From IMG/VR virus record IMGVR_UViG_2585427971_000006: DNA of 38,221 bases; one strand, written 5' to 3'. The number at the start of each line of letters is the position of its first letter. Position 1 is the first letter of the stretch. The notes beneath the pieces are model-generated. The model was not told the origin of the DNA. It saw nothing but the letters and a program-made list of their open reading frames with translations, and did not search any database. The DNA is from a virus (taxonomy: Duplodnaviria; Heunggongvirae; Uroviricota; Caudoviricetes). The translations under genes were made by a program, and so were the position numbers. Shown in pieces: positions 6,030 to 32,097 of the stretch.

Positions 6030-6056
6030 AACCCGCTTCGGCGGGTTTTGTTTTTT
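6030..6056 (+). terminator. intrinsic terminator of the hok mRNA
   Basis: CCCGCTTCGGCGGG hairpin followed by TTTTGTTTTTT. Confidence 0.6.
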
Positions 6057-6128
6057 CCTGGCATTCTGGTTTACAATTCGCACGTCAGCCTGAACACCTG
6101 ACACCTGCTGCGCCAGCAGAGAAAACAG

Positions 6129-6401
6129 ATGGCGCACAAAACCAAATTTCACAATTCTGATACCGACCTTGCCATCCGGCATGAGCGGCGTTCACACGCA
6201 TTTAAAACCGACTGGTACCAACACCCACCATGTACTGAAGAACAGGCCGAATGGCTGATTCATTCTTACCGCAGGCGCGGGTTCGAGGTTAAGAAAGCTC
6301 TCAGTCTCGACTATCGGCACTGGATAATCTCTGTCAGGCTGCCTTATTCCGAACGCCCACCACGTCCGTCCCGCACTTTCCAGCAACGGATCTGGAGGTA
6401 A
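6129..6401 (+). CDS. hypothetical protein (90 aa), in the position of Qin rem
   Basis: Track ORF; stop 1 nt before the start of the DUF968 gene; weak RBS; assignment by position only. Confidence 0.4.
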   Translation: MAHKTKFHNSDTDLAIRHERRSHAFKTDWYQHPPCTEEQAEWLIHSYRRRGFEVKKALSLDYRHWIISVRLPYSERPPRPSRTFQQRIWR

Positions 6402-6402
6402 C

Positions 6403-14515: not shown

Positions 14516-16272
14516 TGGCAAAAGTGGCTGACGGGATCCGCTACGCCGAACGTGTTGTTGCAGGAGAAATTGTTGCTGGCGAATTTGTCCGCCTGGCCTG
14601 CCAGCGTTTTCTTGATGATCTGAAGTACGGCGAAAAGCGGGGGATTTATTTCAGTGAACCCCGTGCGCAGCACATCCTGAATTTCTACAAATTTGTGCCT
14701 CATGTAAAAGGGGCACTGGCAGGCCAGCCCATTGAGTTGATGGACTGGCATGTATTTATCCTCATTAATATTTTTGGTTTTGTCATTCCGCTGGTCAATG
14801 AAGAAACCGGGGAAGTTGTCATGCGCAGCGATGGCAGCGGACGTCCGGTGATGGTGCGCCGGTTCCGGACGGCGTACAACGAAGTCGCCCGTAAAAACGC
14901 AAAATCAACCCTGTCATCGGGTATCGGCCTGTATATGACGGGGGCAGATAGTGAAGGCGGAGCTGAGGTGTATTCAGCCGCAACCACGCGTGACCAGGCC
15001 AGAATCGTGTTTGAAGACGCCAAAAATATGGTCAGAAAAGCCCGGTCGACACTCGGGCGGTTGTTTGATTTCAACAAGCTGGCGATTTACCAGGAGCAGA
15101 GCGCATCAAAATTTGAACCGCTTTCCTCGGATGCAAACAACCTGGACGGTCTGAACATCCACTGCGCCATTATTGATGAGCTGCATGCACATAAAACCCG
15201 CGACGTGTGGGACGTTCTGGAAACGGCAACCGGTGCCCGTCTGCAGTCCCTGTTATTTGGTATCACCACGGCTGGCTTTAACAAGGAAGGGATTTGTTAC
15301 GAGCAGCGTGATTACGCCATCAAGGTATTGCGAGGCTATAACAGCGACGTGGAGGGCGCTGTAAAAGACGACTCTTACTTTGCGATCATTTACACGCTTG
15401 ATGAGGGAGATGATCCGTTTGATGAAACGGTCTGGCAGAAAGCGAATCCTGGCCTGGGCATCTGTAAACGCTGGGATGATCTGCGTCGTCTGGCGAAAAA
15501 AGCGAAGGAGCAGGTCTCTGCGCGGGTGAATTTTTTTACCAAACACATGAATGTGTGGGTCACTGCCGAATCTGCCTGGATGGATATGATTAAGTGGGAG
15601 AAGTGCGAATACATTGCTCCACAACATGAGCTGAAAACATATCCCATGTGGGTCGGCGTCGACCTTGCTCATAAGATTGATATCTGTGCGGCGGCAAAAC
15701 TCTGGCGAACCGATAACGGACATGTTCATGCTGATTTTAAATTCTGGCTTCCGGAAGGACGGCTGGAACGATGCTCGCGGCAGCAGGCAGAACTTTACCG
15801 GAAGTGGGCGGAGATGGATAAGCTCATCCTGACGGATGGTGATGTTATCGATCATGCTCAGATAAAAAGTGACTTACTGGAATGGATTGGCGGTGAAAAC
15901 CTCAGGGAACTGGGATTTGACCCGTGGAGCGCAATGCAGTTCAGTCTGGCACTGGCTGAAGAAGGGATACCGCTGGTGGAGGTTCCGCAGACGGTCCGCA
16001 ATCTGTCAGAGGCCATGAAGGAAACGGAATCACTGGTTTATGCCGGGCGTTTCCATCACAGCAATCATCCGGTCATGAACTGGATGATGTCTAACGTTAC
16101 TGTAAAACCGGACAAAAACGACAACATCTTCCCGAATAAATCCACGCCGGAAGCCAAAATCGACGGCCCTGTTGCGCTTTTTACAGCCATGAGCCGCTTT
16201 CTGGTAAATGGCGGGGGCGTGAATGACTTTCTGTCCACGCTTGATCCTGATGAGGACCTGTTAATTCTGTGA
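14515..16272 (+). CDS. terminase large subunit (585 aa)
   Basis: Walker A-like VARKNAKSTL, EVYSAATTRDQARIVFEDA segment, nuclease-type C-terminal half; HK97-like order TerS-TerL-portal. Confidence 0.85.
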   Translation: MAKVADGIRYAERVVAGEIVAGEFVRLACQRFLDDLKYGEKRGIYFSEPRAQHILNFYKFVPHVKGALAGQPIELMDWHVFILINIFGFVIPLVNEETGEVVMRSDGSGRPVMVRRFRTAYNEVARKNAKSTLSSGIGLYMTGADSEGGAEVYSAATTRDQARIVFEDAKNMVRKARSTLGRLFDFNKLAIYQEQSASKFEPLSSDANNLDGLNIHCAIIDELHAHKTRDVWDVLETATGARLQSLLFGITTAGFNKEGICYEQRDYAIKVLRGYNSDVEGAVKDDSYFAIIYTLDEGDDPFDETVWQKANPGLGICKRWDDLRRLAKKAKEQVSARVNFFTKHMNVWVTAESAWMDMIKWEKCEYIAPQHELKTYPMWVGVDLAHKIDICAAAKLWRTDNGHVHADFKFWLPEGRLERCSRQQAELYRKWAEMDKLILTDGDVIDHAQIKSDLLEWIGGENLRELGFDPWSAMQFSLALAEEGIPLVEVPQTVRNLSEAMKETESLVYAGRFHHSNHPVMNWMMSNVTVKPDKNDNIFPNKSTPEAKIDGPVALFTAMSRFLVNGGGVNDFLSTLDPDEDLLIL

Positions 16273-16289
16273 AACAGCTTATTACTGAT

Positions 16290-16430
16290 ATGACCGGGCT
16301 GATCGGTTTCGGTCTGCTCACTGCTGGCGTTTATCTGTATGCAGGTCTGCCAGCGTCTCTGATGCTGTCTGGCTGTTTGTTGCTGCTTTATGCACTGGTG
16401 GTGTCCATGAGGAGAAAACATGCTTCTTGA
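16290..16430 (+). CDS. small hydrophobic protein between terminase and portal (46 aa from ATG 16290, or 53 aa from GTG 16269), absent from the ORF track
   Basis: Manual translation MTGLIGFGLLTAGVYLYAGLPASLMLSGCLLLLYALVVSMRRKHAS; fills the gap between the TerL stop (16272) and the portal start (16420), overlapping the portal start by 11 nt. Confidence 0.35.
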   Translation: MTGLIGFGLLTAGVYLYAGLPASLMLSGCLLLLYALVVSMRRKHAS

Positions 16431-17646
16431 TGCTCTGTTTCGCAGTGAGCCTCTGGAAAATCCCTCGGTTCCGGTAACCGGAGAGGCCGCAGAGACGGAT
16501 AATATTTTTGCCCGGGATGTGTATGTCAGTCCGGAAACGTCCATGAGGCTGGCTGCTGTCTATGCCTGTATTTATGTTATTTCATCCAGTGTGGCTCAGA
16601 TGCCCCTGCATGTGATGCGAAAAACGAATGAGCATGTTCAGCCGGCACGCGATCACCCGTTGTTCTGGCTCGTTCATGATGAACCGAATGCCTGGCAGAC
16701 CAGCTATAAGTGGCGGGAACTGAAGCAGCGTCATGTGCTGGGGTGGGGCAATGGTTATACGTGGGTGAAACGTAATCGTCGTGGCGAGGTTACCAGTCTT
16801 GAATGCTGTATGCCATGGGAAACCACGTTACTTAACACCGGAGGGCGTCATACCTACGGTGTGTATAACGAAGAGGGTGCATTTGCGGTAAGTCCGGACG
16901 ACATGATCCATATCAGGGCGCTGGGAAACAATCAGAAAATGGGACTGAGTCCGATCATGCAGCATGCTGAAACCATTGGTATGGGAATGAGTGGTCAGCA
17001 GTATACCAGTGCTTTTTTTAACGGTAATGCCCGTCCTGCCGGGATTATTTCTGTGAAAAATGAACTGAACGAACAGAGTTGGAGCAGGCTCAAGAATATG
17101 TGGCAGCGGGCGGTGACAGCGCTTCGCAGCCAGGAAAATAAAACCATGTTGCTGCCTGCGCAACTGGATTACCGCGCTCTGACAGTTTCTCCGGTGGATG
17201 CTCAGATCATTGATATGACCAAGCTGAACCGGTCGATGATTGCCGGGATTTTTAATGTCCCGGCGCACATGATTAATGACCTGGAAAAAGCCACATTTTC
17301 GAATATTACGCAGCAGGCGATTCAGTTTGTTCGCTACACGATGATGCCCTGGGTTGCGAACTGGGAGCAGGAGCTTAACCGTCGCCTGTTTACCCGTACA
17401 GAACGGGCTGCCGGGTATTACGTTCGTTTCAACCTCACGGGGTTGCTCCGTGGGACCCCACAGGAGCGTGCGCAGTTCTATCACTTTGCCATTACAGATG
17501 GCTGGATGAGTCGGAATGAAGCCAGGGCATTTGAGGATATGAACCCGGTTGACGGTCTGGATGAAATGCTGGTCAGCGTAAATGCAGCAAATCCGTTGAA
17601 TAACTTTAAAGATACGAAAGGCAAAGAGGAAAAGAACGATGAATGA
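16420..17646 (+). CDS. portal protein (HK97-type, 408 aa)
   Basis: Position after TerL, size and portal-like sequence; overlaps the protease start. Confidence 0.85.
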   Translation: MLLDALFRSEPLENPSVPVTGEAAETDNIFARDVYVSPETSMRLAAVYACIYVISSSVAQMPLHVMRKTNEHVQPARDHPLFWLVHDEPNAWQTSYKWRELKQRHVLGWGNGYTWVKRNRRGEVTSLECCMPWETTLLNTGGRHTYGVYNEEGAFAVSPDDMIHIRALGNNQKMGLSPIMQHAETIGMGMSGQQYTSAFFNGNARPAGIISVKNELNEQSWSRLKNMWQRAVTALRSQENKTMLLPAQLDYRALTVSPVDAQIIDMTKLNRSMIAGIFNVPAHMINDLEKATFSNITQQAIQFVRYTMMPWVANWEQELNRRLFTRTERAAGYYVRFNLTGLLRGTPQERAQFYHFAITDGWMSRNEARAFEDMNPVDGLDEMLVSVNAANPLNNFKDTKGKEEKNDE

Positions 17647-18238
17647 CCGTGAAACGCGCTGTTACAGCGGGGAGGTGCGGGCGGAACAATATGATAATGC
17701 CCCGACCCACATTCTGGGCTATGGCTCGGTATTTAACAGTCGTTCAGAACCTCTGTGGGGATTTCGTGAAATCATCAAGCCGGGGGCTTTTGATGATGTA
17801 CTGAATGATGATGTACGTGGCTTGTTTAATCATGATCCTAATTTCATTCTCGGACGAAGTTCTGCCGGCACGTTGTCATTGTCGGTGGATGAACGCGGTT
17901 TACGTTATGACATTGTTGCACCGGATACTCCGACTATTTGTGACCTGGTGCTATCTCCAATGTTGCGTGGTGACATTAATCAGTCCTCGTTCGCGTTTCG
18001 TGTCGCCCGTGACGGAGAGAGCTGGTATGAAGACGACGAGGGGATTGTTATCCGGGAAATCACGCGCATTTCTCGTCTGTATGACGTCAGCCCGGTGACA
18101 TATCCGGCCTATCAGGACGCAGACTCTGGTGTCCGCTCAATGAAAGCCTGGCAGGAAGCGCGGGCGAGTGGTGCGCTGAAGAAAGCTGTTAACGAACGAA
18201 TGGCGCGTGAGCGTCTTTTGACCCTTCTTAATGCATAA
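17639..18238 (+). CDS. prohead maturation protease (HK97-type, 199 aa)
   Basis: Position between portal and capsid genes; HK97-protease-like sequence from memory. Confidence 0.8.
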   Translation: MNDRETRCYSGEVRAEQYDNAPTHILGYGSVFNSRSEPLWGFREIIKPGAFDDVLNDDVRGLFNHDPNFILGRSSAGTLSLSVDERGLRYDIVAPDTPTICDLVLSPMLRGDINQSSFAFRVARDGESWYEDDEGIVIREITRISRLYDVSPVTYPAYQDADSGVRSMKAWQEARASGALKKAVNERMARERLLTLLNA

Positions 18239-18252
18239 GGATACTACTGACG

Positions 18253-18546
18253 ATGAAACTTCATGAGATGAAGCAAAAACGAAACACCATTGCAAAGGAT
18301 ATGCGTGCACTGCATGAAAAAATTGGTGATAACGCATGGACTGATGAGCAACGGGCAGAGTGGAACAGGGCGAAAGCTGAGCTGGATGCGCTGGATGAGC
18401 AAATCGCCCGTGAAGAAGAGTTGCGCCGTCAGGATCAGGCATATGTGGATGAGTCCGGGCCGGAAGAGCGCCAGAATAATGAGGCGGAGAACGGGAAAAA
18501 GGCGGTGGAAGAGAAGCGCGCTGCGGCATTATCATTGACACCATGA
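18253..18546 (+). CDS. capsid scaffolding / delta-domain-like coiled-coil protein (97 aa)
   Basis: Highly charged coiled-coil-like sequence (DEQRAEWNRAKAELDALDEQIAREEELRRQDQ); stop overlaps the capsid ATG (ATGA at 18543-18546). Confidence 0.6.
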   Translation: MKLHEMKQKRNTIAKDMRALHEKIGDNAWTDEQRAEWNRAKAELDALDEQIAREEELRRQDQAYVDESGPEERQNNEAENGKKAVEEKRAAALSLTP

Positions 18547-19337
18547 AGGCTTATGGCGGGATTGCCAGTGTGGCGCAACTTCTGACCACATCAACCGGGC
18601 AGGATATCACCTGGTCAACGTCTGATGGCACGACTGAAGAGGGCGAACTGCTGGCGGAAAATACAGCCGCAACGGAACAGGATGTGACGTTCGGGACCGC
18701 TATTCTGGGGGCTAAAAAGCTGTCATCAAAAATAATTCGTGTGTCCAATGAGCTGCTCCAGGACAGTGGGGTGGATATTGAATCTTATCTGGCAAACCGT
18801 ATTGCCCAGCGTATTGGTCGTGGAGAGGCAAAATATCTGGTTCAGGGGACCGGAACGGGATCACCGTTACAGCCAAAAGGGCTGGCAGCGTCGGTGACGG
18901 GAACCATCCAGACTGTAGCCTCTGCCGCTTTCACCTGGAAAGAAATGAATGCCCTGAAACATGCCATTGATCCGGCATATCGTGGTGGGCCGAAATACCG
19001 CTGGGCATTCAATGATGCCACATTGCAGACTATTGAAGAGATGGAGGATGGACAGAAACGCCCGTTATGGCTGCCGGATATTGCAGGCGGTACGCCGGCT
19101 ACTGTGCTGGGGATCCCTTATGTTATTGATCAGGCTATTGACGGGATTGGTACCGGAAAAAAATTCATTTTCCTGGGGGATTTCAACCGCTTTATCATTC
19201 GCCGCGTTACTTATATGGAACTGAAACGTCTGGTTGAGCGTTATGCTGAGTTTGATCAGGTGGCATTTCTGGCTTTCCATCGTTTTGACTGTGTGCTGGA
19301 AGATGTGGCAGCCATCAAGGCGCTCACTGGCAAATAA
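18543..19337 (+). CDS. major capsid protein (HK97 fold, 264 aa)
   Basis: Follows protease and scaffold-like gene; strong terminator after it; size fits an HK97-fold body without the delta domain. Confidence 0.8.
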   Translation: MKAYGGIASVAQLLTTSTGQDITWSTSDGTTEEGELLAENTAATEQDVTFGTAILGAKKLSSKIIRVSNELLQDSGVDIESYLANRIAQRIGRGEAKYLVQGTGTGSPLQPKGLAASVTGTIQTVASAAFTWKEMNALKHAIDPAYRGGPKYRWAFNDATLQTIEEMEDGQKRPLWLPDIAGGTPATVLGIPYVIDQAIDGIGTGKKFIFLGDFNRFIIRRVTYMELKRLVERYAEFDQVAFLAFHRFDCVLEDVAAIKALTGK

Positions 19338-19357
19338 CCACTCGTTGTTCAGTTACA

Positions 19358-19381
19358 GACCGCGCCGACGCGGTTTTTTTA
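19358..19381 (+). terminator. intrinsic terminator after the capsid gene
   Basis: ACCGCGCCGACGCGGT hairpin followed by TTTTTTTAT. Confidence 0.65.
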
Positions 19382-19413
19382 TGCCCGCACAGTGTTGCGG
19401 GCAGGAGTTTCTG

Positions 19414-19731
19414 ATGGCAGCAATAGTGGAAAAACTCAGGGCGCAGTGCCGTATTGATACAGATGATGCAACTGATGATGAGTTACTGATGCTGTATTTC
19501 CGGGCTGCCTGCCGCAAGGCAGAAAATTTTATCAACCGTAAGCTTTATGAGGAGACGGTGCCGGAAGGTGATCCTGAAGGGGTGCTTATAGCTGATGATG
19601 TTTTGCTGGCGCTCATGTTGCTGGTCGGGCACTGGTACGAAAACCGGGAAAATTCCTCAGATGTCAGCAAGGCACCAGTCCCGTTTGGTTTTTCTTCTCT
19701 GCTGGAGCCTTATCGTTTTATTCCTTTGTAG
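19414..19731 (+). CDS. head-tail connector protein (gp6-like, 105 aa)
   Basis: GCAGGAG RBS before ATG 19414; position after the capsid gene; track ORF starts upstream at 19234 across the terminator. Confidence 0.65.
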   Translation: MAAIVEKLRAQCRIDTDDATDDELLMLYFRAACRKAENFINRKLYEETVPEGDPEGVLIADDVLLALMLLVGHWYENRENSSDVSKAPVPFGFSSLLEPYRFIPL

Positions 19732-19739
19732 GAGGAGAC

Positions 19740-20078
19740 ATGCAGGCGGGCAGATTACGTGATCGCGTAATTATTCTGAATGTCACCACCGCCCGCTCTC
19801 CGTCAGGGCATCCGGTGGAGACGGTGACGGAGGGAGCTACCGTATGGGCAGAAGTTAAGGGTATCAGCGGGAGGGAGATAATCTCAGGCGGAGCAGAAAC
19901 CGCTCAGGCTACGGTCAGAGTCTGGATGAGATTCCGGCGCGATGTGACAGCGACTTCACGTCTGAAAGTGCTGACCGGTGCATTTAAAGGGGCCATTCTG
20001 GGTATAGAAGGTCCACCAATACCGGATGCACGCGCTACCCGGCTTGAAATACTCTGCAGCCTGAAGGGGAATGTGTGA
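19740..20078 (+). CDS. head closure / head-tail adaptor protein (112 aa)
   Basis: GGAGG RBS; position and size in the HK97-like head-tail joining module. Confidence 0.65.
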   Translation: MQAGRLRDRVIILNVTTARSPSGHPVETVTEGATVWAEVKGISGREIISGGAETAQATVRVWMRFRRDVTATSRLKVLTGAFKGAILGIEGPPIPDARATRLEILCSLKGNV

Positions 20079-20524
20079 TGGATTTCAGTCTTGATTTTTC
20101 CGGCCTGGCGGATATTGCACGGGATTTGGAGACGCTCAGCAGGGCAGAAAACAATAAGGTTCTGCGCGATGCCACCCGTGCCGGTGCTGAAGTTATGCGG
20201 GATGCAGTTGTTGAACGTGCGCCGGAGCGAACCGGGAAACTGAAGAAAAATGTGGTTGTTCTCACTCAGCGTTCAAAGCGTCGGGGGGAAATTATCTCGG
20301 GTGTCCACATTCGCGGACGGAACCTGCGAACCGGAAACAGTGATAACAGCATGAAAGCCAGCGATCCCCGAAATGCATTTTACTGGCGCTTTGTGGAGCT
20401 GGGAACGATAAACATGCCCGCGCATCCATTCATTCGCCCGGCTTTCGATACGACAGAGGAACTGGCAGCACGGATTGCCATACAGCGAATGAATCAGGCT
20501 ATTGATGAGGTCTTAAGTAAATGA
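20078..20524 (+). CDS. HK97 gp10-like tail-component protein (148 aa)
   Basis: Overlaps the upstream stop; position; track ORF starts at GTG 20075. Confidence 0.65.
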   Translation: MDFSLDFSGLADIARDLETLSRAENNKVLRDATRAGAEVMRDAVVERAPERTGKLKKNVVVLTQRSKRRGEIISGVHIRGRNLRTGNSDNSMKASDPRNAFYWRFVELGTINMPAHPFIRPAFDTTEELAARIAIQRMNQAIDEVLSK

Positions 20525-20865
20525 GAGAGGCCACACTGTATTCCCTGTTGTCTCAGCTGGCCGGAGGACAGGTTTATCCTTATGTGGTCCCACTGACGGA
20601 GGGAAAGCCTGCGGTATCTCCGCCGTGGCTGGTGTTTTCTGTGGTGTCTGACACGGCATCTGATGTGCTTGATGGGCAGGCTGAATCCAGAATTACCGTG
20701 CAGATCGATGTCTGGGCGACAGTACCTGATGACGCAGATAATATTCGTGAGCAGGCGCTTGATGCGGTAAGAAAACTGGCACCCTCCGTTATTTCTAAAA
20801 CGCAGGGTTATGATCCTGACTCCCGTCTGAGCAGAGCCACGCTTGAATTTCAGGTAATAGCCTGA
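20521..20865 (+). CDS. tail completion / tail terminator-like protein (114 aa)
   Basis: ATGA overlap with upstream gene; position just before the major tail gene. Confidence 0.6.
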   Translation: MREATLYSLLSQLAGGQVYPYVVPLTEGKPAVSPPWLVFSVVSDTASDVLDGQAESRITVQIDVWATVPDDADNIREQALDAVRKLAPSVISKTQGYDPDSRLSRATLEFQVIA

Positions 20866-20884
20866 GGTCATTAATGATTTTACC

Positions 20885-20908
20885 CACCCGCCGCTGGCGG
20901 GTTTTTTT
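20885..20908 (+). terminator. intrinsic terminator before the major tail gene
   Basis: CCCGCCGCTGGCGGG hairpin followed by TTTTTTTATTTT. Confidence 0.6.
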
Positions 20909-20925
20909 ATTTTCAGGAGACGAGT

Positions 20926-21630
20926 ATGTCCTCTAATTTTGAGCGTTCGCAACTGACGAAAATTATGATTTCGTCTGCACCGGTAACAGCAGAAACCCTG
21001 GATTCTGCCAGCTATCTTGGCCTGAGCTGTACAATCAAAGAGGTGCAGTTTACCGCAGGACAAAAGCAGGATATTGATGTCACCACGCTGTGTTCTGTTG
21101 AGCAGGAAAATATTAACGGTCTTGGTGCCGCGTCAGAGATTTCCATGTCAGGCAACTTTTATCTGAATGCTGCCCAGAACGCGTTGCGCAGTGCCTATGA
21201 CAATGACACCACGTATGGCTTTAAAGTTATTTTTCCGTCAGGCAACGGATTTACCTTTATGGCAGAGGTGCGTCAGCATACCTGGTCTGCAGGAACCAAT
21301 GGTGTTGTGGCTGCAACGTTTTCCTTGCGCCTGAAAGGTAAACCTGTGCTGACGACAGAGCCGCTGAAAGTGAAGGCCGATTTAAAAAGCACGCTGCGGG
21401 TTGCTTCCGGAGCGAAACTTGAAATGGCGGTTGAGGCTGCGGGTGGTGTGCCGCCTTATTCTTATGTCTGGAAGAAAGGTGGTTCTCCTGTTTCCGGACA
21501 GACGGCGGCAACGTTCAGTAAGGCATCGGCAGTATCCGGTGATGCGGGTGCATATACCTGCGAGATTTCTGATTCAGCAAGCCCGGTTAACAAAGTGACC
21601 TCCACTTCCTGCACTGTAACCGTCAGTTAA
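20926..21630 (+). CDS. major tail protein with C-terminal Ig-like domain (234 aa)
   Basis: Position before the G/GT chaperone genes; C-terminal segment GGVPPYSYVWKKGGSPVSGQTAATFSKASAVSGDAGAYTCEISD typical of Ig-like decoration domains. Confidence 0.8.
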   Translation: MSSNFERSQLTKIMISSAPVTAETLDSASYLGLSCTIKEVQFTAGQKQDIDVTTLCSVEQENINGLGAASEISMSGNFYLNAAQNALRSAYDNDTTYGFKVIFPSGNGFTFMAEVRQHTWSAGTNGVVAATFSLRLKGKPVLTTEPLKVKADLKSTLRVASGAKLEMAVEAAGGVPPYSYVWKKGGSPVSGQTAATFSKASAVSGDAGAYTCEISDSASPVNKVTSTSCTVTVS

Positions 21631-21644
21631 TGAGGATGGATGTG

Positions 21645-22016
21645 ATGACTAAAAATATCCGTAATCTGGCACTGGCAACGATGTCGGGGTTTCGCCATAA
21701 AACCGTTGATGTGCCTGAATGGGAGGGAGCAACGGTTGTGTTACGGGAACCTTCTGCAGAAGCCTGGTTGCGCTGGCAGGAGATCGTTAAAGCAAAAGAT
21801 GATGAGACACCGTTATCCGTTGCGGAGCGCGCCCGCCGAAATCTGGAGGCAGATGTTGAACTGTTCATTGATGTTCTGTGTGATACCGGACTGCAACCCG
21901 TATTTTCAGAGGATGATCGTGAACAGGTGATTGCCGTGTATGGCCCGGTGCATGCGCGGCTTCTTCGGCAGTCTCTGGAACTGATCAGTGATGCCGGCGA
22001 GGTTAAAAAAAAGTAG
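21645..22016 (+). CDS. tail assembly chaperone G-like (123 aa)
   Basis: GAGGA RBS before ATG 21645; ends 3 nt after an A_AAA_AAG slippery heptamer; followed in the -1 frame by a T-like ORF. Confidence 0.75.
   Translation: MTKNIRNLALATMSGFRHKTVDVPEWEGATVVLREPSAEAWLRWQEIVKAKDDETPLSVAERARRNLEADVELFIDVLCDTGLQPVFSEDDREQVIAVYGPVHARLLRQSLELISDAGEVKKK
22007..22013 (+). promoter_or_regulatory. programmed -1 ribosomal frameshift site A_AAA_AAG (G to GT fusion)
   Basis: Heptamer in the zero frame of the G-like gene 1 codon before its stop; -1 frame is open from 22007 to 22318. Confidence 0.7.
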
Positions 22017-22318
22017 CGCTTCCGGGGATGCGTTTTCTGATGATGCTGGCGCTCAGGATGGGGCGCACATTGTCAGAGTTACGCCGGGAAATGTCCGCAT
22101 CAGAAATCATGATGTGGGCAGAATTTGACAGGTTCAGCCCGCTGGGGGACGAACGGGCTGATATCCGGGCTGCCCAGATTGTTTCAGCTGTTTACGGTGC
22201 GCAGGGGGTCAAAGTGCCACTGAATGATGCGCTTCTTCAGTGGGAGAAGGAGCAGACAGAAGGCGTATCAGATCCATTTGCCGGACTGGAAAACGCGCTT
22301 TTAATAGTGTCTCAGTGA
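22007..22318 (+). CDS. T-like extension of the tail assembly chaperone, expressed as a G-T fusion by -1 frameshift
   Basis: -1 frame relative to G, open from the slippery site; no independent RBS; track reports it from 22028. Confidence 0.65.
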   Translation, partial: KKVALPGMRFLMMLALRMGRTLSELRREMSASEIMMWAEFDRFSPLGDERADIRAAQIVSAVYGAQGVKVPLNDALLQWEKEQTEGVSDPFAGLENALLIVSQ

Positions 22319-22326
22319 GTCAACAT

Positions 22327-22348
22327 AACCGCTTCGGCGGTTTTTTTT
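22327..22348 (+). terminator. hairpin plus U-run between GT and tape-measure genes
   Basis: ACCGCTTCGGCGGT hairpin followed by TTTTTTTT. Confidence 0.5.
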
Positions 22349-22358
22349 CGTCCGGAGA

Positions 22359-25300
22359 ATGAGTGTGGCGACATTACGTGAACTGATTATTAAAATCTCG
22401 GCAAATTCCCGGTCATTCCAGTCAGAGATCTCCCGGGCTTCGCGTATGGGGCAGGATTACTACCGTACCATGCAGAACGGAGGCCGGCAGTCCGCTGCTG
22501 CATCCCGTGAAATGCGGCGTGCACTGGCAGAAGTGACGGATCAGATAAATACAGCTAAATCTTCGGCACTGAATATGGCGGGGGCATTTGCCGGGGCTTT
22601 TGCTACCGGTCATCTTATTTCTTTCGCCGATGAGTGGAATTCAGTAAATGCCCGTCTGAAGCAGGCCTCACAGTCCAGTGATGATTTTCAGGCATCACAG
22701 CGTGAATTAATGGCGATCAGCCAGAGAACGGGGACGGCGTTTTCTGATAACGCCAGCCTTTTTGCCCGTTCTGCAGCTTCCATGCGGGAGTATGGTTACA
22801 GTTCTGAGGAGGTACTGAAAGTCACCGAGGCGATCTCCACGGGCCTGAAATTATCCGGTGCCAGTACAGCAGAAGCCAGTTCGGTGATCACGCAGTTCAG
22901 TCAGGCACTGGCGCAGGGAGTGCTGCGCGGTGAAGAGTTTAACTCGGTGAATGAGAACGGCGATCGTGTTATTCGTGCGCTGGCTGCGGGAGTGGGGGTT
23001 GCCCGTAAGGATCTGAAGGCCATGGCGGATAACGGAAAGTTGACCGCCGATAAGGTTGTTCCTGCACTGATTAGTCAGCTTGGGGCATTACGTGATGAAT
23101 ATGCGGCAATGCCTGATACGGTTTCATCCTCTGCAACCAAAGTTGAAAACGCCTTTATGGCCTGGGTTGGTGGTGCGAACGAGGCAAGCGGAGTGACGAA
23201 GACGCTCTCCGGTGTGCTGAATGGTATTGCAGGCAATATTGACACTGTGGCAACCGCTGCCGGTGCTCTGGTTGCCGTCGGGGTAGCCCGATATTTTGGC
23301 AATATGGCGTCTTCTGCTGGATCTGCAACTGCCGGATTAATTACTGCAGCCAGAAACGAAGTGGCTCTTGCGGAAGCGCAGCTCCGGGGGACACAGATAG
23401 CAACAGCCAGGGCGCGTGCGGCGGTTTATCGTGCGCAACAGGCGGTTGTTGCTGCTCGCGGTACCGAAAGGCAGGCAGCCGCAGAAGCGAAACTGGCTGC
23501 TGCCCAGGCATCACTTACCCGTAATATTGCGGCCAGAACAGCAGCACAGACAACGCTGAATACTGTCACGTCAGTGGGAAGTCGTCTGTTAAGTGGAGCA
23601 CTGGGACTGGTTGGTGGGGTGCCGGGGCTTGTCATGCTGGGGGCCGCGGCCTGGTACACGATGTATCAGAATCAGGAGCAGGCCAGAGAATCTGCACGCC
23701 AGTATGCCGCAAAAATCGACGAAATTCGCCAGAAAACGTCGGCAATGTCGCTTCCTGAAGCGTCAGATAATGAGGAAAAGACGCGGCAGGCACTTGATGA
23801 GCAAAACAGGTTAATTGACGAGCAGAAAAGTAAGATTAAATCCTTACAGGAAAAAATTGCTGGCTATCAGTATGTGCTGGCAAACCCGGGCTGGACAACC
23901 GATAACGGTTTTATGATTAACCACATGACGTCGGTAAAAACAGTCACAGAAGGGCTTGCAGAAGCAACAAATCAACTGGCAGTTGAACAGTCCCGTCTCA
24001 CACAAATGCAGGGCAAAGCGCAATCCATTCAGGATGTGCTTGCCGGGCTGGAGGAGCGGCGGGTTGCGTTGATCCGTCAACAGGCGGCGGAACAAAACAA
24101 AGCGTATCAGTCCCTGTTGATCATGAATGGGCAGCATACCGAGTTTAATCGCCTTCTTGGGCTTGGTAATGAATTACTTCAGCAGCGACAGGGGCTGGTG
24201 AATGTACCGTTACGGCTACCACAGGCAACCCTGGATGATAAACAGCAGACCGCACTGAATAACAGCAAGCGCGAACTGGCTCTGTCCCGCCTTAAGGGGG
24301 AAGCGCGTGAGCGTGCCCGACTGGGCTATGCTGCGGATGATCTCGGCTTTGTGGGAGAGGCGTATCAGACAGCCAGACAGAATTATATCAATAACTCACT
24401 GGATGCCTGGCGAAATAACCAGGCAAATAAACCCAAAGCGCATAAAAAGACCGAAGCGGAAAAAACAGAAGATATTTATAAACGGCTGATTAAACAGCAA
24501 AAAGAACAGATAGCACTGGCAGGGCAGAATACTGAACTGGCTAAGATGAAATATCAGGTCAGTCAGGGCGAATTATCAACCCTGTCAGAAGCGCAGAAAA
24601 AAACGCTTTTGCAGAATGCAGCACTCATCGACCAGAAAAAGATTCGTGAGCAGCTTGCTGCGTATGAAAGCAGCCTGGCGGACAGTAATGCCAGTACCCG
24701 GGCGTCTAACGACGCGCAGTTACTGGGATATGGTGAAGGCTCACGGATGCGTGAACGACTCCAGGAAATGTGGAGTATCCGGCATGAGTTTGAGCAGAAA
24801 AATAACGAGCTGCTGAGACAGTATCAGGCCGGAGAAATTGAAGAAGCCCTGTGGAAACAGGAGAAAGAACTGAATAAAAAATATCTGGAAGAGCGTCTCA
24901 GCGATCAGCAGGATTATTATGCAAAGGCCGATGCTTTACGTAATAACTGGAATGCAGGACTCCAGGAGGGGCTGACCAACTGGGCAGACAGTGCCACCGA
25001 TTATGCTTCGCAGGCGGCAGATGCTGTCGTTTCCACTATGGACGGGCTGGTATCAAATATTTCCGATGCGCTGGCCGGAAATGTTGTGGACTGGAGAAAC
25101 TGGGGGAGTTCAATTCTCCAGGAAGTTTCAAAAATTCTGATGAATGCGGCCATTGTTAACGGACTGAAGTCACTCTCCGGTGCCGGAGGGTGGCTTGGTA
25201 CGGTCGGCGGATGGATTTCGGGGGCGGTGGCAAACGCAAAAGGTGGTGTTTACACATCGGCAAATCTGAGTGCTTACAGTAACACTATTGTGGATACACC

Positions 25301-25592
25301 GACGTATTTTGCTTTTGCGAAAGGTGCCGGGCTGATGGGCGAGGCCGGGCCTGAAGCTATCATGCCACTGACACGGGCAGCGGACGGCTCTCTTGGGGTC
25401 AGAGCCATTGGCAATGTGAATAGTGGCGGGGGGGTTGTTTATTCTCCCGTGTATCACATCAGCATTCAGAATCAAGGGAGCAATGGCGAGATAGATGCGC
25501 GCTCAGCCAGGGGACTGGTGGATCTGATCGACAGCAGGGTTGTGTCAATTATGCAGTCATCGCGTCGGGATGGAGGATTGTACAGTGCCTGA
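22359..25592 (+). CDS. tail tape measure protein (1077 aa)
   Basis: Very long, Ala/Gln-rich, coiled-coil-like; follows G/GT; GGAG RBS. Confidence 0.9.
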   Translation: MSVATLRELIIKISANSRSFQSEISRASRMGQDYYRTMQNGGRQSAAASREMRRALAEVTDQINTAKSSALNMAGAFAGAFATGHLISFADEWNSVNARLKQASQSSDDFQASQRELMAISQRTGTAFSDNASLFARSAASMREYGYSSEEVLKVTEAISTGLKLSGASTAEASSVITQFSQALAQGVLRGEEFNSVNENGDRVIRALAAGVGVARKDLKAMADNGKLTADKVVPALISQLGALRDEYAAMPDTVSSSATKVENAFMAWVGGANEASGVTKTLSGVLNGIAGNIDTVATAAGALVAVGVARYFGNMASSAGSATAGLITAARNEVALAEAQLRGTQIATARARAAVYRAQQAVVAARGTERQAAAEAKLAAAQASLTRNIAARTAAQTTLNTVTSVGSRLLSGALGLVGGVPGLVMLGAAAWYTMYQNQEQARESARQYAAKIDEIRQKTSAMSLPEASDNEEKTRQALDEQNRLIDEQKSKIKSLQEKIAGYQYVLANPGWTTDNGFMINHMTSVKTVTEGLAEATNQLAVEQSRLTQMQGKAQSIQDVLAGLEERRVALIRQQAAEQNKAYQSLLIMNGQHTEFNRLLGLGNELLQQRQGLVNVPLRLPQATLDDKQQTALNNSKRELALSRLKGEARERARLGYAADDLGFVGEAYQTARQNYINNSLDAWRNNQANKPKAHKKTEAEKTEDIYKRLIKQQKEQIALAGQNTELAKMKYQVSQGELSTLSEAQKKTLLQNAALIDQKKIREQLAAYESSLADSNASTRASNDAQLLGYGEGSRMRERLQEMWSIRHEFEQKNNELLRQYQAGEIEEALWKQEKELNKKYLEERLSDQQDYYAKADALRNNWNAGLQEGLTNWADSATDYASQAADAVVSTMDGLVSNISDALAGNVVDWRNWGSSILQEVSKILMNAAIVNGLKSLSGAGGWLGTVGGWISGAVANAKGGVYTSANLSAYSNTIVDTPTYFAFAKGAGLMGEAGPEAIMPLTRAADGSLGVRAIGNVNSGGGVVYSPVYHISIQNQGSNGEIDARSARGLVDLIDSRVVSIMQSSRRDGGLYSA

Positions 25593-25926
25593 GCCTGAAG
25601 TTTTTAACTGGATCCCCCGTGAGGGGATGGAGACGACACGAAAGCCATCAGTTATTACGGTAAAGTTTGGTGACGGATATGAACAGAGACGGGCTGGTGG
25701 TCTGAATGCGGATCTGAAAACGTTTAAACCGGTATTTCGTGTCACAGATGAATATTCCCGTGCCGCGCTGGACAGTTTTTTATCCCGTCATGCCGGGATT
25801 CGTGCTTTTTTGTGGCGTCCGCCAAAACACAACAGGACTGTCCGGGTTGTCTGCAGGGAGTGGAGCATTTCGGATAATGCCATGTATACCGATTTTAACT
25901 GTACCTTTGAAGAGGTCACTCACTGA
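25570..25926 (+). CDS. M: minor tail protein M (start 25570 ATG or 25585 GTG)
   Basis: KFGDGYEQRRAGGLNADLKTFKPVF and FLWRPP motifs resemble lambda gpM from memory; track ORF starts at 25540 inside the tape-measure gene. Confidence 0.75.
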   Translation: MEDCTVPEPEVFNWIPREGMETTRKPSVITVKFGDGYEQRRAGGLNADLKTFKPVFRVTDEYSRAALDSFLSRHAGIRAFLWRPPKHNRTVRVVCREWSISDNAMYTDFNCTFEEVTH

Positions 25927-26624
25927 TGCAGGATATACAGCAGGAAACACTCAATGAGTGCACTAAAACGGAGCAATCCGCGCTGATCGTGCTCTGGGAA
26001 ATTGATCTGACAGAGGTCGGCGGAGATCGTTATTTCTTCTGTAATGAGCAGAACGAAAAAGGTGAACCGGTCACCTGGCAGGGGCGGCAGTATCAGGCAT
26101 ACCCCATTCAGGGGACGGGATTTGAACTGAACGGTAAGGGCAGTGCTGCCCGTCCGACACTGACGGTCTCTAACCTGCACGGCATGGTCACCGGGATGGC
26201 GGAAGACCTGCAGAGTCTGGTCGGCGGAACGGTGGTCAGGCGTAAGGTTTACGCCCGTTTTCTGGATGCGGTGAACTTCGTCAACGGAAACAGTGACGCC
26301 GACCCGGAGCAGGAGGTGATCAGCCGCTGGCGCATCGAGCAGTGCAGCGAACTGAGTGCGGTCAGTGCTTCTTTTGTACTGTCCACGCCGACGGAAACGG
26401 ATGGTGCGGTTTTTCCGGGGCGCATCATGCTGGCCAACACCTGTACCTGGACCTATCGCGGTGATGAGTGCGGTTATAGCGGTCCGGCTGTCGCGGATGA
26501 ATATGACCAGCCGACGTCCGATATCACGAAAGATAAATGCAGCAAATGCCTGAGTGGCTGTAAGTTTCGCAATAACGTCGGCAACTTTGGCGGCTACCTT
26601 TCCATCAACAAACTTTCGCAGTAA
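25926..26624 (+). CDS. L: minor tail protein L (232 aa)
   Basis: Lambda gpL-like sequence and C-terminal Cys cluster; ATGA overlap with M. Confidence 0.85.
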   Translation: MQDIQQETLNECTKTEQSALIVLWEIDLTEVGGDRYFFCNEQNEKGEPVTWQGRQYQAYPIQGTGFELNGKGSAARPTLTVSNLHGMVTGMAEDLQSLVGGTVVRRKVYARFLDAVNFVNGNSDADPEQEVISRWRIEQCSELSAVSASFVLSTPTETDGAVFPGRIMLANTCTWTYRGDECGYSGPAVADEYDQPTSDITKDKCSKCLSGCKFRNNVGNFGGYLSINKLSQ

Positions 26625-26629
26625 ATCCC

Positions 26630-27373
26630 ATGACAGAGACAGAATCAGCGATTCTGGCGCACGCCCGGCGATGTGCGCCAGCGGAGTCGTGCGGCTTCGT
26701 GGTGAGAACGCCGGAGGGGGAAAGATATTTCCCCTGCGTGAATATCTCCGGTGAGCCGGAAGATTATTTCCGGATGTCGCCGGAGGACTGGCTGCAGGCC
26801 AAAATGCAGGGTGAGATTGTGGCGCTGGTCCACAGTCACCCCGGTGGTCTGCCCTGGCTGAGTGAGGCTGACAGGCGGCTGCAGGTGCAGAGTGATTTGC
26901 CGTGGTGGCTGGTCTGCCGGGGGGCGATTCATAAGTTCCGCTGTGTGCCGCATCTTACCGGGCGGCGCTTTGAGCACGGGGTGACGGACTGTTACACGCT
27001 GTTCCGGGATGCTTATCATCTGGCGGGGATTGAGATGCCGGATTTTCATCGTGAGGATGACTGGTGGCGTCACGGTCAGAATCTCTATCTGGATAATCTG
27101 GAGGCCACAGGGCTGTATCAGGTGCCGTTGTCATCAGCACAACCGGGCGATGTGCTGCTGTGCTGCTTTGGTTCATCGGTGCCGAATCATGCCGCCATTT
27201 ACTGCGGCGACGGCGAGCTGCTGCACCATATTCCTGAACAACTGAGCAAACGAGAGAGGTATACCGACAAATGGCAGCGACGCACACACTCCCTCTGGCG
27301 TCACCGGGCATGGCACGCATCTGCCTTTACGGGGATTTGCAACGATTTGGCCACCGCATCGACCTTCGTGTGA
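26630..27373 (+). CDS. K: tail assembly protein K (JAB/MPN-like plus NlpC/P60-like regions, 247 aa)
   Basis: HSHPGG motif and Cys/His region; lambda gpK-like from memory; 3' end overlaps the I gene by about 100 nt. Confidence 0.85.
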   Translation: MTETESAILAHARRCAPAESCGFVVRTPEGERYFPCVNISGEPEDYFRMSPEDWLQAKMQGEIVALVHSHPGGLPWLSEADRRLQVQSDLPWWLVCRGAIHKFRCVPHLTGRRFEHGVTDCYTLFRDAYHLAGIEMPDFHREDDWWRHGQNLYLDNLEATGLYQVPLSSAQPGDVLLCCFGSSVPNHAAIYCGDGELLHHIPEQLSKRERYTDKWQRRTHSLWRHRAWHASAFTGICNDLATASTFV

Positions 27374-27918
27374 AAACGGGAGCCGAAGCTATCCGGGCGC
27401 TGGCCACGCAGCTCCCGGCGTTTCGTCAGAAACTGAATGAGGGCTGGTATCAGGTGCGCATTGCCGGGCGTGATGCAGGCGAAAACGAATTATCTGCCCG
27501 TCTTAATGAGCCGCTGGCAAATGGTGCCGTGATCCACATCGTGCCGCGTCTGGCGGGAGCTAAAAGTGGCGGTGTGTTTCAGGTGGTGCTGGGGGCGGCG
27601 CTGATTGCGGTGGCATGGTGGAACCCTGTGGGCTGGCTGGGTGCCGCGGCTGTATCGGGCATGTATGCGGCAGGGGCCAGTATGATCCTGGGTGGTGTGG
27701 CCCAGATGCTGGCACCGAAAGCCCGGACGCCCACAGCGACCAGCACGGATAACGGTAAGCAGAACACCTATTTCTCATCACTGGATAACATGGTTGCCCA
27801 GGGCAATGTTCTGCCTGTTCTGTACGGTGAAATGCGCGTGGGGTCTCGTGTGGTTTCTCAGGAGATCAGCACGGCAGATGAAGGGGACGGTGGTCAGGTT
27901 GTGGTGATTGGCCGCTGA
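27271..27918 (+). CDS. I: tail assembly protein I (215 aa)
   Basis: MAATHTLPLASPGMARICLYGDLQRFG... and the C-terminus match lambda gpI from memory. Confidence 0.85.
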   Translation: MAATHTLPLASPGMARICLYGDLQRFGHRIDLRVKTGAEAIRALATQLPAFRQKLNEGWYQVRIAGRDAGENELSARLNEPLANGAVIHIVPRLAGAKSGGVFQVVLGAALIAVAWWNPVGWLGAAAVSGMYAAGASMILGGVAQMLAPKARTPTATSTDNGKQNTYFSSLDNMVAQGNVLPVLYGEMRVGSRVVSQEISTADEGDGGQVVVIGR

Positions 27919-27978
27919 TGCAAAATATTTCATGTGAAACCGCCTCCGGGCGGTTTTGTCGTTTATGGAGCATGACGA

Positions 27979-30900
27979 ATGGGCAAAGGAAGCAGTAAGG
28001 GGCATACCCCGCGCGAAGCGAAGGACAACCTGAAATCCACGCAATTACTGAGTGTGATCGATGCCATCAGCGAAGGGCCGATTGAAGGTCCGGTGGATGG
28101 ATTAAAAAGCGTGCTGCTGAACAGTACACCGGTGCTGGACAGTGAGGGGAATACCAACATCTCCGGTGTTACGGTGGTGTTCCGGGCAGGTGAGCAGGAG
28201 CAGACACCGCCGGAGGGATTTGAATCCTCCGGTTCCGAGACGGTGCTGGGTACGGAAGTGAAATACGACACGCCGATCACCCGCACCATCACGTCGGCAA
28301 ACATCGACCGTCTGCGCTTTACCTTCGGTGTGCAGGCACTGGTGGAAACCACCTCAAAGGGGGACAGGAATCCATCGGAAGTCCGCCTGCTGGTTCAGAT
28401 ACAACGTAACGGTGGCTGGGTGACGGAAAAAGACATCACCATTAAGGGTAAAACCACCTCACAGTATCTGGCCTCAGTGGTGGTGGATAACCTGCCGCCG
28501 CGCCCGTTTAATATCCGGATGCGCAGGATGACGCCGGACAGCACCACAGACCAGCTGCAGAACAAAACGCTCTGGTCGTCATACACCGAAATCATCGATG
28601 TGAAACAGTGCTACCCGAACACGGCACTGGTCGGCGTACAGGTGGACTCGGAGCAGTTCGGCAGCCAGCAGGTGAGTCGTAATTATCATCTTCGCGGGCG
28701 CATTCTGCAGGTGCCGTCGAACTATAACCCGCAGACGCGGCAATACAGCGGTATCTGGGACGGAACGTTTAAGCCGGCATACAGCAACAACATGGCCTGG
28801 TGTCTGTGGGATATGCTGACCCATCCGCGCTACGGCATGGGAAAACGTCTTGGTGCGGCAGATGTGGATAAATGGGCGCTGTATGTCATCGGCCAGTACT
28901 GCGACCAGTCGGTGCCGGACGGCTTTGGCGGCACGGAGCCGCGCATCACCTGTAATGCGTACCTGACCACACAGCGTAAGGCGTGGGATGTGCTCAGTGA
29001 TTTCTGCTCGGCGATGCGCTGTATGCCGGTATGGAACGGGCAGACGCTGACGTTCGTGCAGGACCGGCCGTCGGATAATGTGTGGACCTATAACCGCAGT
29101 AATGTGGTGATGCCGGATGATGGCGCGCCGTTCCGCTACAGTTTCAGCGCCCTGAAGGACCGCCATAATGCCGTTGAGGTGAACTGGACTGACCCGGATA
29201 ACGGCTGGGAAACGGCAACAGAGCTTGTGGAGGACACGCAGGCCATTGCCCGTTATGGTCGTAATGTCACGAAGATGGATGCCTTTGGCTGTACCAGCCG
29301 GGGGCAGGCACACCGCGCCGGGCTGTGGCTGATTAAAACGGAGCTGCTGGAAACGCAGACCGTGGACTTCAGCGTGGGCGCAGAAGGGCTTCGCCATGTA
29401 CCGGGCGATGTTATTGAAATCTGCGATGATGACTATGCCGGTATCAGCACCGGTGGTCGTGTGCTGGCGGTGAGCAGCCAGACCCGGACGCTGACGCTCG
29501 ACCGTGAAATCACGCTGCCATCCTCCGGCACCACGCTGATAAGCCTGGTTGACGGAAGTGGCAATCCGGTCAGCGTGCAGGTCCAGTCCGTCACCGACGG
29601 CGTGAAGGTGAAAGTGAGCCGGGTTCCTGACGGCGTTGCAGAATACAGCGTGTGGGGGCTGAAGTTGCCGACGTTGCGCCAGCGCCTGTTCCGCTGTGTG
29701 AGTATCCGTGAGAACGACGACGGCACGTATGCCATCACCGCCGTGCAGCATGTACCGGAAAAAGAAGCCATCGTGGATAACGGGGCGCACTTTGACGGCG
29801 ACCAGAGCGGCACGGTGAATGGTGTCACGCCGCCAGCGGTGCAGCACCTGGCCGCAGAAGTCACTGCAGACAGCGGGGAATATCAGGTGCTGGCGCGATG
29901 GGACACACCGAAGGTGGTGAAGGGCGTGAGCTTCCTGCTCCGTCTGACCGTAACAGCGGACGACGGCAGTGAGCGGCTGGTCAGCACGGCCCGGACGACG
30001 GAAACCACATACCGCTTCAGGCAACTGGCGCTGGGGCGTTACACGCTGACGGTCCGGGCGGTAAATGCGTGGGGGCAGCAGGGCGATCCGGCATCGGTAT
30101 CGTTCCGGATTGCGGCACCGGCAGCGCCTGTCACTATTGAACTGATACCAGGGTATTTTCAGATAACAGCGGTCCCGAAACTGGCTGTATATGACCCGAC
30201 GGTGCAGTTTGAGTTCTGGTTCTCGGAAAAGCGGATTATCGATATCAGGCAGGTTGAAACCAGCGCGCGTTATCTTGGTACGGCGCTGTACTGGATAGCC
30301 GCCAGTAGCAATATTAAGCCGGGTTATGATTATTACTTTTATATCCGCAGCGTGAACACCGTTGGTAAATCGGCATTTGTGGAGGCCGTTGGTCGGGCGA
30401 GCGATGATGCGGAAGGTTATCTGAATTTTTATAAAGGGTTGATCAATAAAACGCATCTCGGCAAGGAACTGCTGGAAAACTTTGAGCTGACGGAAGATAA
30501 CGCCAGCAAACTGGAGGAGTTTTCGAAAGAGTGGAAGGACGCCAACGATAAATGGAATGCCATGTGGGGCGTCAAAATTGAGCAGACCAAAGACGGCAAA
30601 CATTATGTCGCGGGGCTTGGCCTCAGCATGGAGGATACGGAGGAAGGCAAACTGAGCCAGTTCCTGGTTGCCGCTAACCGTATCGCGTTTATTGACCCGG
30701 CAAACGGGAATGAAACGCCGATGTTTGTGGCGCAGGGCAACCAGATATTCATGAACGACGTGTTCCTGAAGCGCCTGACGGCCCCCACCATTACCAGCGG
30801 CGGTAATCCTCCGGCATTTTCCCTGACACCGGACGGGCGGCTGACGGCGAAAAATGCCGATATCAGCGGTAACGTGAATGCGAACTCCGGGACGCTCAAC

Positions 30901-31374
30901 AACGTCACGATTAACGAGAACTGCCGGGTTCTGGGAAAACTGTCCGCGAACCAGATTGAAGGCGATCTCGTTAAAACAGTGGGCAAAGCTTTCCCCCGTG
31001 ACTCCCGGGCACCGGAGCGGTGGCCATCAGGGACCATTACCGTCAGGGTTTATGACGATCAGCCGTTTGACCGGCAAATTGTTATTCCGGCTGTGGCATT
31101 CAGTGGCGCTAAGCATGAGAGAGAGCATACTGATATTTACTCCTCATGCCGTCTGATAGTGCGGAAAAACGGTGCTGAAATTTATAACCGTACCGCGCTG
31201 GATAATACGCTGATTTACAGTGGCGTTATTGATATGCCTGCCGGTCACGGTCACATGACGCTGGAGTTTTCGGTGTCAGCATGGCTGGTAAATGGCTGGT
31301 ATCCCACAGCAAGTATCAGCGATTTGCTGGTTGTTGTGATGAAGAAAGCCACTGCAGGCATCACGATTAGCTGA
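27979..31374 (+). CDS. J: central tail fibre / host specificity protein J (1131 aa)
   Basis: N-terminus [54 protein letters not shown] and most of the body match lambda J from memory; the last ~150 aa diverge. Confidence 0.9.
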
Positions 31375-31441
31375 ATTTTATAACCCAGATACGGGCACCA
31401 GAAATGGTGCCTTTTTTATTGCAGAAAAGCGAGAGGTAATT

Positions 31442-32041
31442 ATGCGTAAATTATGTGCTGTTATTCTATCCGCAGTAGTCTGGCTGGTTGCCGCTGGTAC
31501 GCCAGCGAGCGCAGCAGAGCATCAGTCCACACTAAGCGCCGGGTATCTTCAGACCCATACTGATATGCCAGGCAGTGATGACCTGAAGGGCATTAACGTG
31601 AAATACCGTTATGAATTTACGGACACGCTGGGGCTGGTGACGTCATTCAGTTATGCCAATGCCAAAGATGAGCAAAAAACGCATTACAGCGATACCCGCT
31701 GGCATGAAGATTCAGTGCGTAACCGCTGGTTCAGCATGATGGCGGGGCCATCTGTACGCGTGAATGAATGGTTCAGTGCTTATGCGATGGCAGGTGTGGC
31801 TTACAGCCGTGTTTCGACGTTCTCCGGGGATTATCTCCGCGTAACTGACAACAAGGGGAAAACGCACGATGTGCTGACCGGAAGTGATGACGATCGCCAC
31901 AGCAACACGTCTCTGGCGTGGGGAGCTGGCGTGCAGTTTAACCCGACCGAATCCGTGGCCATTGATATTGCTTATGAAGGCTCCGGCAGTGGCGACTGGC
32001 GCACTGACGGTTTCATCGTGGGTGTCGGTTATAAGTTCTGA
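31442..32041 (+). CDS. lom: Lom outer-membrane protein (Ail/Lom family, 199 aa)
   Basis: Signal peptide, beta-barrel-like alternation, C-terminal GVGYKF; position after J as in lambda. Confidence 0.85.
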   Translation: MRKLCAVILSAVVWLVAAGTPASAAEHQSTLSAGYLQTHTDMPGSDDLKGINVKYRYEFTDTLGLVTSFSYANAKDEQKTHYSDTRWHEDSVRNRWFSMMAGPSVRVNEWFSAYAMAGVAYSRVSTFSGDYLRVTDNKGKTHDVLTGSDDDRHSNTSLAWGAGVQFNPTESVAIDIAYEGSGSGDWRTDGFIVGVGYKF

Positions 32042-32094: not shown

Positions 32095-32097
32095 GTG

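Follow-up and report, generated by a model that had tools for sequence, protein, structure and literature searches.

The major capsid protein of phage HK97 carries its scaffold as an attached domain, residues 2–66 of which form coiled-coil towers. It continues with a helix lining the capsomer (S76–S88) and with a strand added to the P-domain sheet (K92–G97); cleavage occurs at K103/S104, and the N-arm is the flexible stretch L105–R130 (PMC10275583). The HK97 capsid protein aggregates when the scaffold domain is not attached, and the domain as such "behaves as an independent protein" (PMC10275583). In lambda, P22, T4, SPP1 and phi29 the scaffold proteins are separate (PMC10275583).

The locus studied here belongs to a 38,221-nt stretch of viral DNA, further referred to as the window (its whole length). 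A small helical ORF overlaps in it with an ORF encoding the body of an HK97-type capsid protein. The original prediction offered two readings of this pair, a separate scaffold gene translationally coupled to the capsid gene, and a frameshifted single gene. Comparison with relatives makes it highly probable that the pair is a single HK97-family capsid gene inactivated by a real 133-bp deletion between positions 18530 and 18531.

Anatomy of the overlapping ORF pair

ORF1, the upstream member of the pair, occupies positions 18253..18546 of the plus strand and encodes 97 aa. ORF2 (264 aa) is located on the same strand at 18543..19337 in the −1 frame relative to ORF1, and the two share the overlap ATGA at 18543–18546. 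The heptamer G_AAA_AAG is found at 18495–18501, AAA and AAG being zero-frame codons, and the −1 frame of the window is open from 18483 onward into ORF2. The coordinates of both ORFs, their overlap and relative frame, and the heptamer with the −1 frame already open at it are all as the original prediction gave them. Its naming of the pieces, a delta- or scaffold-like coiled coil followed by an HK97-fold body, was also correct, given the profile match of ORF2 and the helical model of ORF1. The product of ORF2 matches Pfam family PF05065 (Phage_capsid) with the E-value of 9.5e-64, yet over profile positions 17–279 of 280 only. The 97-aa product of ORF1 had no match in Pfam; in the single-sequence AlphaFold2 model it forms three helices, 3–24, 31–67 and 70–93, with a mean pLDDT of 82.

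The gene directly upstream, at 17639..18238 of the plus strand, encodes an HK97-family (S78) prohead maturation protease; it is intact (PF04586 Peptidase_S78, E-value 1.6e-40), and in Escherichia coli 4/0 the identical locus carries the annotation "HK97 family phage prohead protease". The capsid gene begins 15 nt later, and there is no separate scaffold gene. The portal gene (16420..17646) lies just upstream of the protease gene.

The deletion and the intact relatives of the gene

The window was compared by blastn with 41 kb of E. coli 4/0 (NZ_CP023849.1), and the identity was 100% over 1–18530 and over 18531–38221. Only two differences separate the window from this prophage, a gap of 133 bp and an A-run shorter by 1 nt at 33452–33456. 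The window is a lambdoid prophage, and its positions 1–38221 correspond to 1802–40156 of the 41-kb locus. The gap falls in the capsid gene: relative to every close homologue, 133 bp are missing at the junction 18530|18531, and the boundary between ORF1 and ORF2 coincides with this deletion. The window around the junction reads GCGGCATT(18530)|(18531)ATCATTGACACCATGAAGG, and in the alignment 133 extra bases stand in between in E. coli 4/0 as well as in phage Evi.

The intact gene is a single ORF of 1218 nt; its product is a major capsid protein of 405 aa, to which the scaffold (delta) domain is fused at the N-terminus. In the E. coli 4/0 locus it is annotated as one "phage major capsid protein" gene of this length (WP_000766111.1), and the capsid gene of phage Evi is likewise a single 1218-nt ORF for 405 aa (VUF53195.1, LR597642.1). 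The intact protein matches PF05065 over profile positions 1–279 (E-value 2.5e-70). On both sides of the junction the window is 99.8–100% identical in nucleotide sequence to these two loci, and the gene order (portal, S78 protease, capsid, head-tail connector) is shared; the difference is that their ORF is continuous, whereas the window lacks nucleotides 279–411 of it. The intact form of the phage is viable. Evi, with 99.8% identity in this region, is described as a coliphage that was isolated from faecal samples of infants (PMC10910852).

The 133 missing bases begin with the third base of codon 93 and run through the last base of codon 137, and the residues lost are FNRFLRAGFAELNAEERNLMRELRAQSVTTDSQGGYTVPTQMRNK. 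As 133 = 3 × 44 + 1, the downstream part drops into the −1 frame. The gene is thus broken into two fragments on the plus strand, and the junction between them (18530..18531) is placed by the alignment, by the whole-window blastn search against E. coli 4/0 and by codon arithmetic. The 5' fragment (18253..18530) comprises codons 1–92 and the first two bases of codon 93, that is, the helical delta domain without its C-terminal part, and is 100% identical to the intact loci up to 18530. The 3' fragment (18531..19337) comprises codons 138–405 and the stop codon, encodes the HK97-fold body without most of the N-arm, and is identical to the 41-kb locus of E. coli 4/0 from position 20465 of the latter. 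After AAA92 the native protein runs on as FNRFLRAG, and ORF1 of the window instead ends in the tail L-S-L-T-P-stop (18529..18546, plus strand). This tail is a frameshift product foreign to the native protein, LSLTP and the TGA being an out-of-frame reading of codons 138–142. The ATG of ORF2 at 18543 is the internal Met142 of the intact protein, and the deletion takes out the conserved profile positions 1–16 of PF05065, the match of ORF2 starting at position 17. In the window copy the helical N-terminal part and the fold are in different frames and hence do not form one polypeptide. Because of the deletion, the copy lacks both the single polypeptide and, by the alignment with HK97, the intact cleavage site with N-arm that are expected of an HK97-type capsid protein.

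The intact state is common, and the junction is private to this allele. In a megablast search with positions 18200–19400, query coverage was at least 80% for 676 records of E. coli genomes and for 9 of phages, and identity was at least 99% for 677 E. coli records and for all 9 phages; each match among the rows listed consists of two pieces, covering 1334 bases of the record versus 1201 of the query. A 213-nt probe across the deleted segment matched in one piece in 677 of the 5,426 complete E. coli genomes, in 675 of them with identity of at least 99%. A 44-nt probe centred on the junction had no match in the same 5,426 genomes or in 50,697 phage records (INPHARED), and the exact 28-nt junction pattern is absent from IMG/VR, the GTDB representative genomes and the JGI metagenomes. 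In a collection of 15 billion proteins, the intact 405-aa sequence is present on at least 1000 contigs, and the 97-aa and 264-aa products are present on one contig only.

More distant relatives give the same picture. Of the 406 records yielded by a tblastn search of phages with the intact protein, 371 align with at least 80% of the query at a single location. In a sample of 40 rows spread over the ranking (100% to about 25% identity), every match is one piece; most of them begin at residue 1–3, and eight weaker ones begin between residues 26 and 152. Since the phage relatives match as one continuous piece, the fused arrangement is the norm of the family. The first of the two proposed readings, a separate scaffold translationally coupled to the capsid gene, is contradicted by these counts, the 677 E. 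coli and 9 phage copies all being one continuous 405-aa ORF. On comparison with relatives, the homologues proved to be uniformly single ORFs differing from the window by an indel at this very place, the outcome for which the original prediction had foreseen an inactivating mutation and a defective prophage.

We also considered whether the 133 bp could be a mobile element or an intron inserted elsewhere, with the window representing the empty site. The segment is in frame, encodes the start of the PF05065 domain and lies inside the alignment with the capsid protein of a gene transfer agent (GTA, see below), and it is the supposedly empty state that is out of frame. We concluded that the window carries a deletion, and that there is no insertion in the other genomes. 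As the flanks are 100% identical to those of intact copies, the event is recent and had no adaptive follow-up.

The ends of the deletion show no microhomology, and neither flanking direct repeats nor a repeat family were found at the breakpoints; slippage between direct repeats was rejected as its origin on these grounds. The predicted DNA fold of the 133-bp segment is unremarkable (z = −0.46). The segment contains a perfect 8-nt inverted repeat, TCTGCGTG / CACGCAGA, absent from the window; its arms lie 9 and 11 nt inward from the segment ends (20341–20348 and 20446–20453 of the E. coli 4/0 41-kb locus). The repeat may have brought the breakpoints together during replication, but this is only a weak hint, and its presence may be due to chance.

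Other disrupted alleles of the same capsid gene, independently broken, occur in other E. coli assemblies. One of them has a 124-aa product diverging after residue 118, found on 12 contigs of up to 395 kb, and another has a 121-aa product diverging after residue 109. The new C-termini of these products suggest insertions or rearrangements elsewhere in the same N-arm region. Several independently broken alleles of a capsid gene are the usual picture of prophage decay.

The structural meaning of the lost segment was assessed using solved capsid proteins. HK97 gp5 (3QPR, 1OHG) is similar to the intact gene in the PF05065 domain, in the layout (an alpha-helical N-terminal domain, the N-arm and the HK97 fold), in the protease gene preceding the capsid gene and in having no separate scaffold gene. 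It differs in that the sequence relation is distant, with an E-value of about 3e-4 over residues 122–258 only. The phmmer alignments place residues 122–258 of the query on residues 109–241 of the full-length 3QPR_A, and 123–258 on residues 7–138 of the mature chain 1OHG_A, so the offset between the two numberings is 13. By this offset, the predicted cleavage site R116|A117 would be equivalent to K103|S104 of HK97, and the N-arm would span approximately residues 117–143. The deleted residues 93–137 would then correspond to approximately residues 80–124 of HK97, the transfer being less safe inside the scaffold domain, and what is gone would be a part of the docking helix-turn-strand, the predicted cleavage site and about two-thirds of the N-arm. 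Thus ORF1 would retain the coiled-coil part only, and ORF2 (residues 142–405, approximately 129–385 of HK97) would be the body without the N-arm. With these equivalents deleted, the two domains are no longer joined in the window.

Among solved structures, the intact protein has its best match in the capsid protein of the Rhodobacter capsulatus GTA (6TBA, 6TB9; phmmer E-value 5.7e-22), although the latter comes from an element of a different kind and the sequence relation is distant. Residues 88–402 of the query align with 63–381 of 6tba as one chain spanning the deleted stretch, within which the HK97 gp5 matches begin (at 122–123).

Translation across the junction

With inactivation by the deletion, the features of the ORF pair can be accounted for as follows. 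Removal of codons 93–137 shifts the frame, and translation from the native start ends after 92 native and 5 junk residues. The remaining 268 codons are left in the −1 frame, where an ORF finder picks them up from the internal Met142, and both the ATGA overlap and the open −1 frame are by-products of the positions at which the deletion ends. Neither fragment would be able to build a procapsid, and the allele is expected to be null for head assembly. Given a null allele, the prophage in this isolate cannot package itself or make its own heads. Near-identical intact homologues, a private lesion, an indel whose length is not a multiple of three and the loss of conserved residues, all features of the sequence, together mark the ORF pair as a presumptive capsid pseudogene in a defective prophage.

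The second reading of the original prediction, a frameshifted single gene, holds in the mutational sense, the shift being that of the 133-bp deletion, and does not hold in the sense of programmed −1 slippage. In intact genes G_AAA_AAG is kept unchanged, and the −1 frame at it reads GGGREARCGI and then TAA, ten codons past the heptamer. The deleted segment begins with this TAA; the −1 frame of the window is open because the stop was lost with the deletion. As the −1 frame is closed in intact genes, the heptamer cannot have evolved for frameshifting. With G as the first base, full re-pairing of the P-site tRNA is impossible, and the heptamer departs from the canonical X_XXY_YYZ. The RNA downstream of it (18502–18580), folded without pseudoknots, has an energy of −23.0 kcal/mol against the shuffle mean of −23.96 (z = +0.31). 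Programmed −1 frameshifting at G_AAA_AAG was rejected based on the closed frame in intact genes, the unstructured downstream RNA and the non-canonical heptamer.

A −1 ribosomal shift could also be imagined as a rescue, occurring at 18495–18501 or anywhere in 18483–18542 and restoring a fused capsid protein with an internal deletion. The zero-frame AAA AAG and the frame open from 18483 into ORF2 are in line with such an event. However, the objections to programmed slippage (the first base of the heptamer, the missing stimulatory structure and the stop after 10 codons in intact genes) bear on the rescue as well, and the resulting fusion, with some 14 foreign residues in it, would have neither the cleavage site nor the N-arm. 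A further point against it is that the window demonstrates what a genuine site looks like. The canonical A_AAA_AAG is found at 22007–22013, just before the stop codon of a gene for a G-like tail assembly chaperone (21645..22016), and the T-like gene (22040..22318) is read in the −1 frame, open from 22007. By its sequence, this is the expected conserved programmed frameshift of G/GT and the real site of the window, the heptamer in the capsid gene being incidental. The latter has the same AAA_AAG core as the A_AAA_AAG sites of the tail chaperones G/GT and of dnaX, but it lacks the first A, the conserved two-frame arrangement and the downstream structure. We consider restoration of the fused protein by frameshifting extremely improbable.

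The pair could alternatively be a functional split gene, with a free 97-aa scaffold and a 264-aa body produced by termination–reinitiation at the ATGA. The overlap itself is compatible with this, many phages have separate scaffolds, and the scaffold domain of HK97 is quasi-independent (PMC10275583). Superficially, the 97-aa ORF does resemble the scaffolds of lambda, P22, T4, SPP1 and phi29, being a gene for a small helical protein just upstream of the capsid gene. Yet those scaffold genes are conserved, separately initiated and provide their own capsid-binding ends, whereas the split in the window is a private deletion allele without the docking end. No match of 4 nt or more to the Shine–Dalgarno sequence AGGAGGT was found in the 22 nt before 18543, and the start codon of ORF2 corresponds to a methionine inside the native protein. 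The equivalents of the docking helix-turn-strand and of the cleavage site, most of the N-arm and positions 1–16 of PF05065 are deleted. The split architecture is seen in none of the 677 E. coli copies, the 9 phage copies and the distant relatives listed, and the perfect identity of the flanks to intact copies, indicating a recent event with no adaptive follow-up, also speaks against it. A functional split gene is therefore very unlikely. As a class of gene organization, a coupled separate scaffold was rejected for three of these reasons: the close relatives and the 40 distant ones listed are fused, the Shine–Dalgarno sequence is missing, and the deletion removes the docking, cleavage and N-arm equivalents.

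Some termination–reinitiation at Met142 via the ATGA overlap could nevertheless take place in the inactivated gene. As the scaffold domain of HK97 is described as behaving like an independent protein (PMC10275583), complementation in trans is not impossible in principle. That the 97-aa coiled coil and a reinitiated 264-aa body devoid of the N-arm still co-assemble into shells is, in our estimate, barely conceivable. If true, it would mean that a fused scaffold of the HK97 type works in trans without the docking segment, the cleavage site and the N-arm, and the allele would be a natural experiment.

With inactivation by deletion as the preferred reading, the locus presents nothing new in kind. 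The intact gene is an ordinary HK97-type capsid gene with a fused scaffold, the split belongs neither to the separate-scaffold class nor to the programmed-frameshift class, and nothing new about capsid assembly or recoding is learned from it. For annotation, this means that a single capsid pseudogene with a frameshift should be entered here in place of separate scaffold and capsid genes.

Authenticity of the deletion and the state of the prophage

The junction is present in a second assembly. Logan contig SRR1824517_108 (13,637 bp), assembled independently from a public run, encodes both shortened products with the identical junction and is collinear with positions 12578–26214 of the window. 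It differs from the window by only 7 substitutions, clustered at window positions 12830–12926 (contig positions 253–349) inside the iss/bor gene, relatives of which occur in other prophages. These substitutions may reflect an assembly path through the copy of another prophage, or else the two sequences may come from different isolates with the same deletion. A literature search for SRR1824517 returned no paper. As the same junction was obtained in an independent assembly, it is not an invention of one assembler, and the deletion is probably real.

The opposite possibility is that the deletion is an artefact of assembly, library preparation or PCR, or a minority variant, and that the isolate carries the normal 405-aa gene. 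The allele is indeed confined to one public contig and read set, being absent from all other collections searched, and the second private lesion, located in a homopolymer (A5 versus A6 at 33452–33456), might hint at imperfect sequence quality. On the other hand, a clean loss of 133 bp in unique sequence without flanking repeats is untypical of assembler or Illumina errors, and the exact junction was reproduced by the independent Logan assembler. We therefore consider an artefact unlikely, though less so than any of the alternatives discussed above.

The second lesion affects the gene annotated as "prophage tail fiber N-terminal domain", which starts at 32817. The run at 33452–33456 has five A in the window and six in E. 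coli 4/0, and the shorter run shifts the frame, leaving 375 aa instead of 792. The exact A5 allele is absent from complete E. coli genomes; the shortened tail-fibre product is not on record elsewhere, with no confirmation from an independent assembly. The A5 run inactivates a second gene, or else it is a sequencing error in a homopolymer; as a second private lesion, it points in the same direction as the capsid deletion, toward a defective prophage.

With the capsid gene inactivated, the prophage of this isolate should be classed as defective in head assembly, though it is otherwise identical to inducible relatives. It is a clean and recent case of decay affecting a prophage that is widespread in E. 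coli, carries iss and lom and is present in about 12% of complete genomes. The capsid region has 100% matches also in JJ1886, EC958 and other genomes of O25b:H4-ST131. In the identical locus of E. coli 4/0, hokD, iss, lom, tRNA-Ile and tRNA-Arg are annotated, together with an IS200C transposase that lies between lom and the tail fibre gene, at approximately 32238–32696 of the window. Both ends of the window coincide exactly with gene boundaries, one following dicB and the other at the zinT start.
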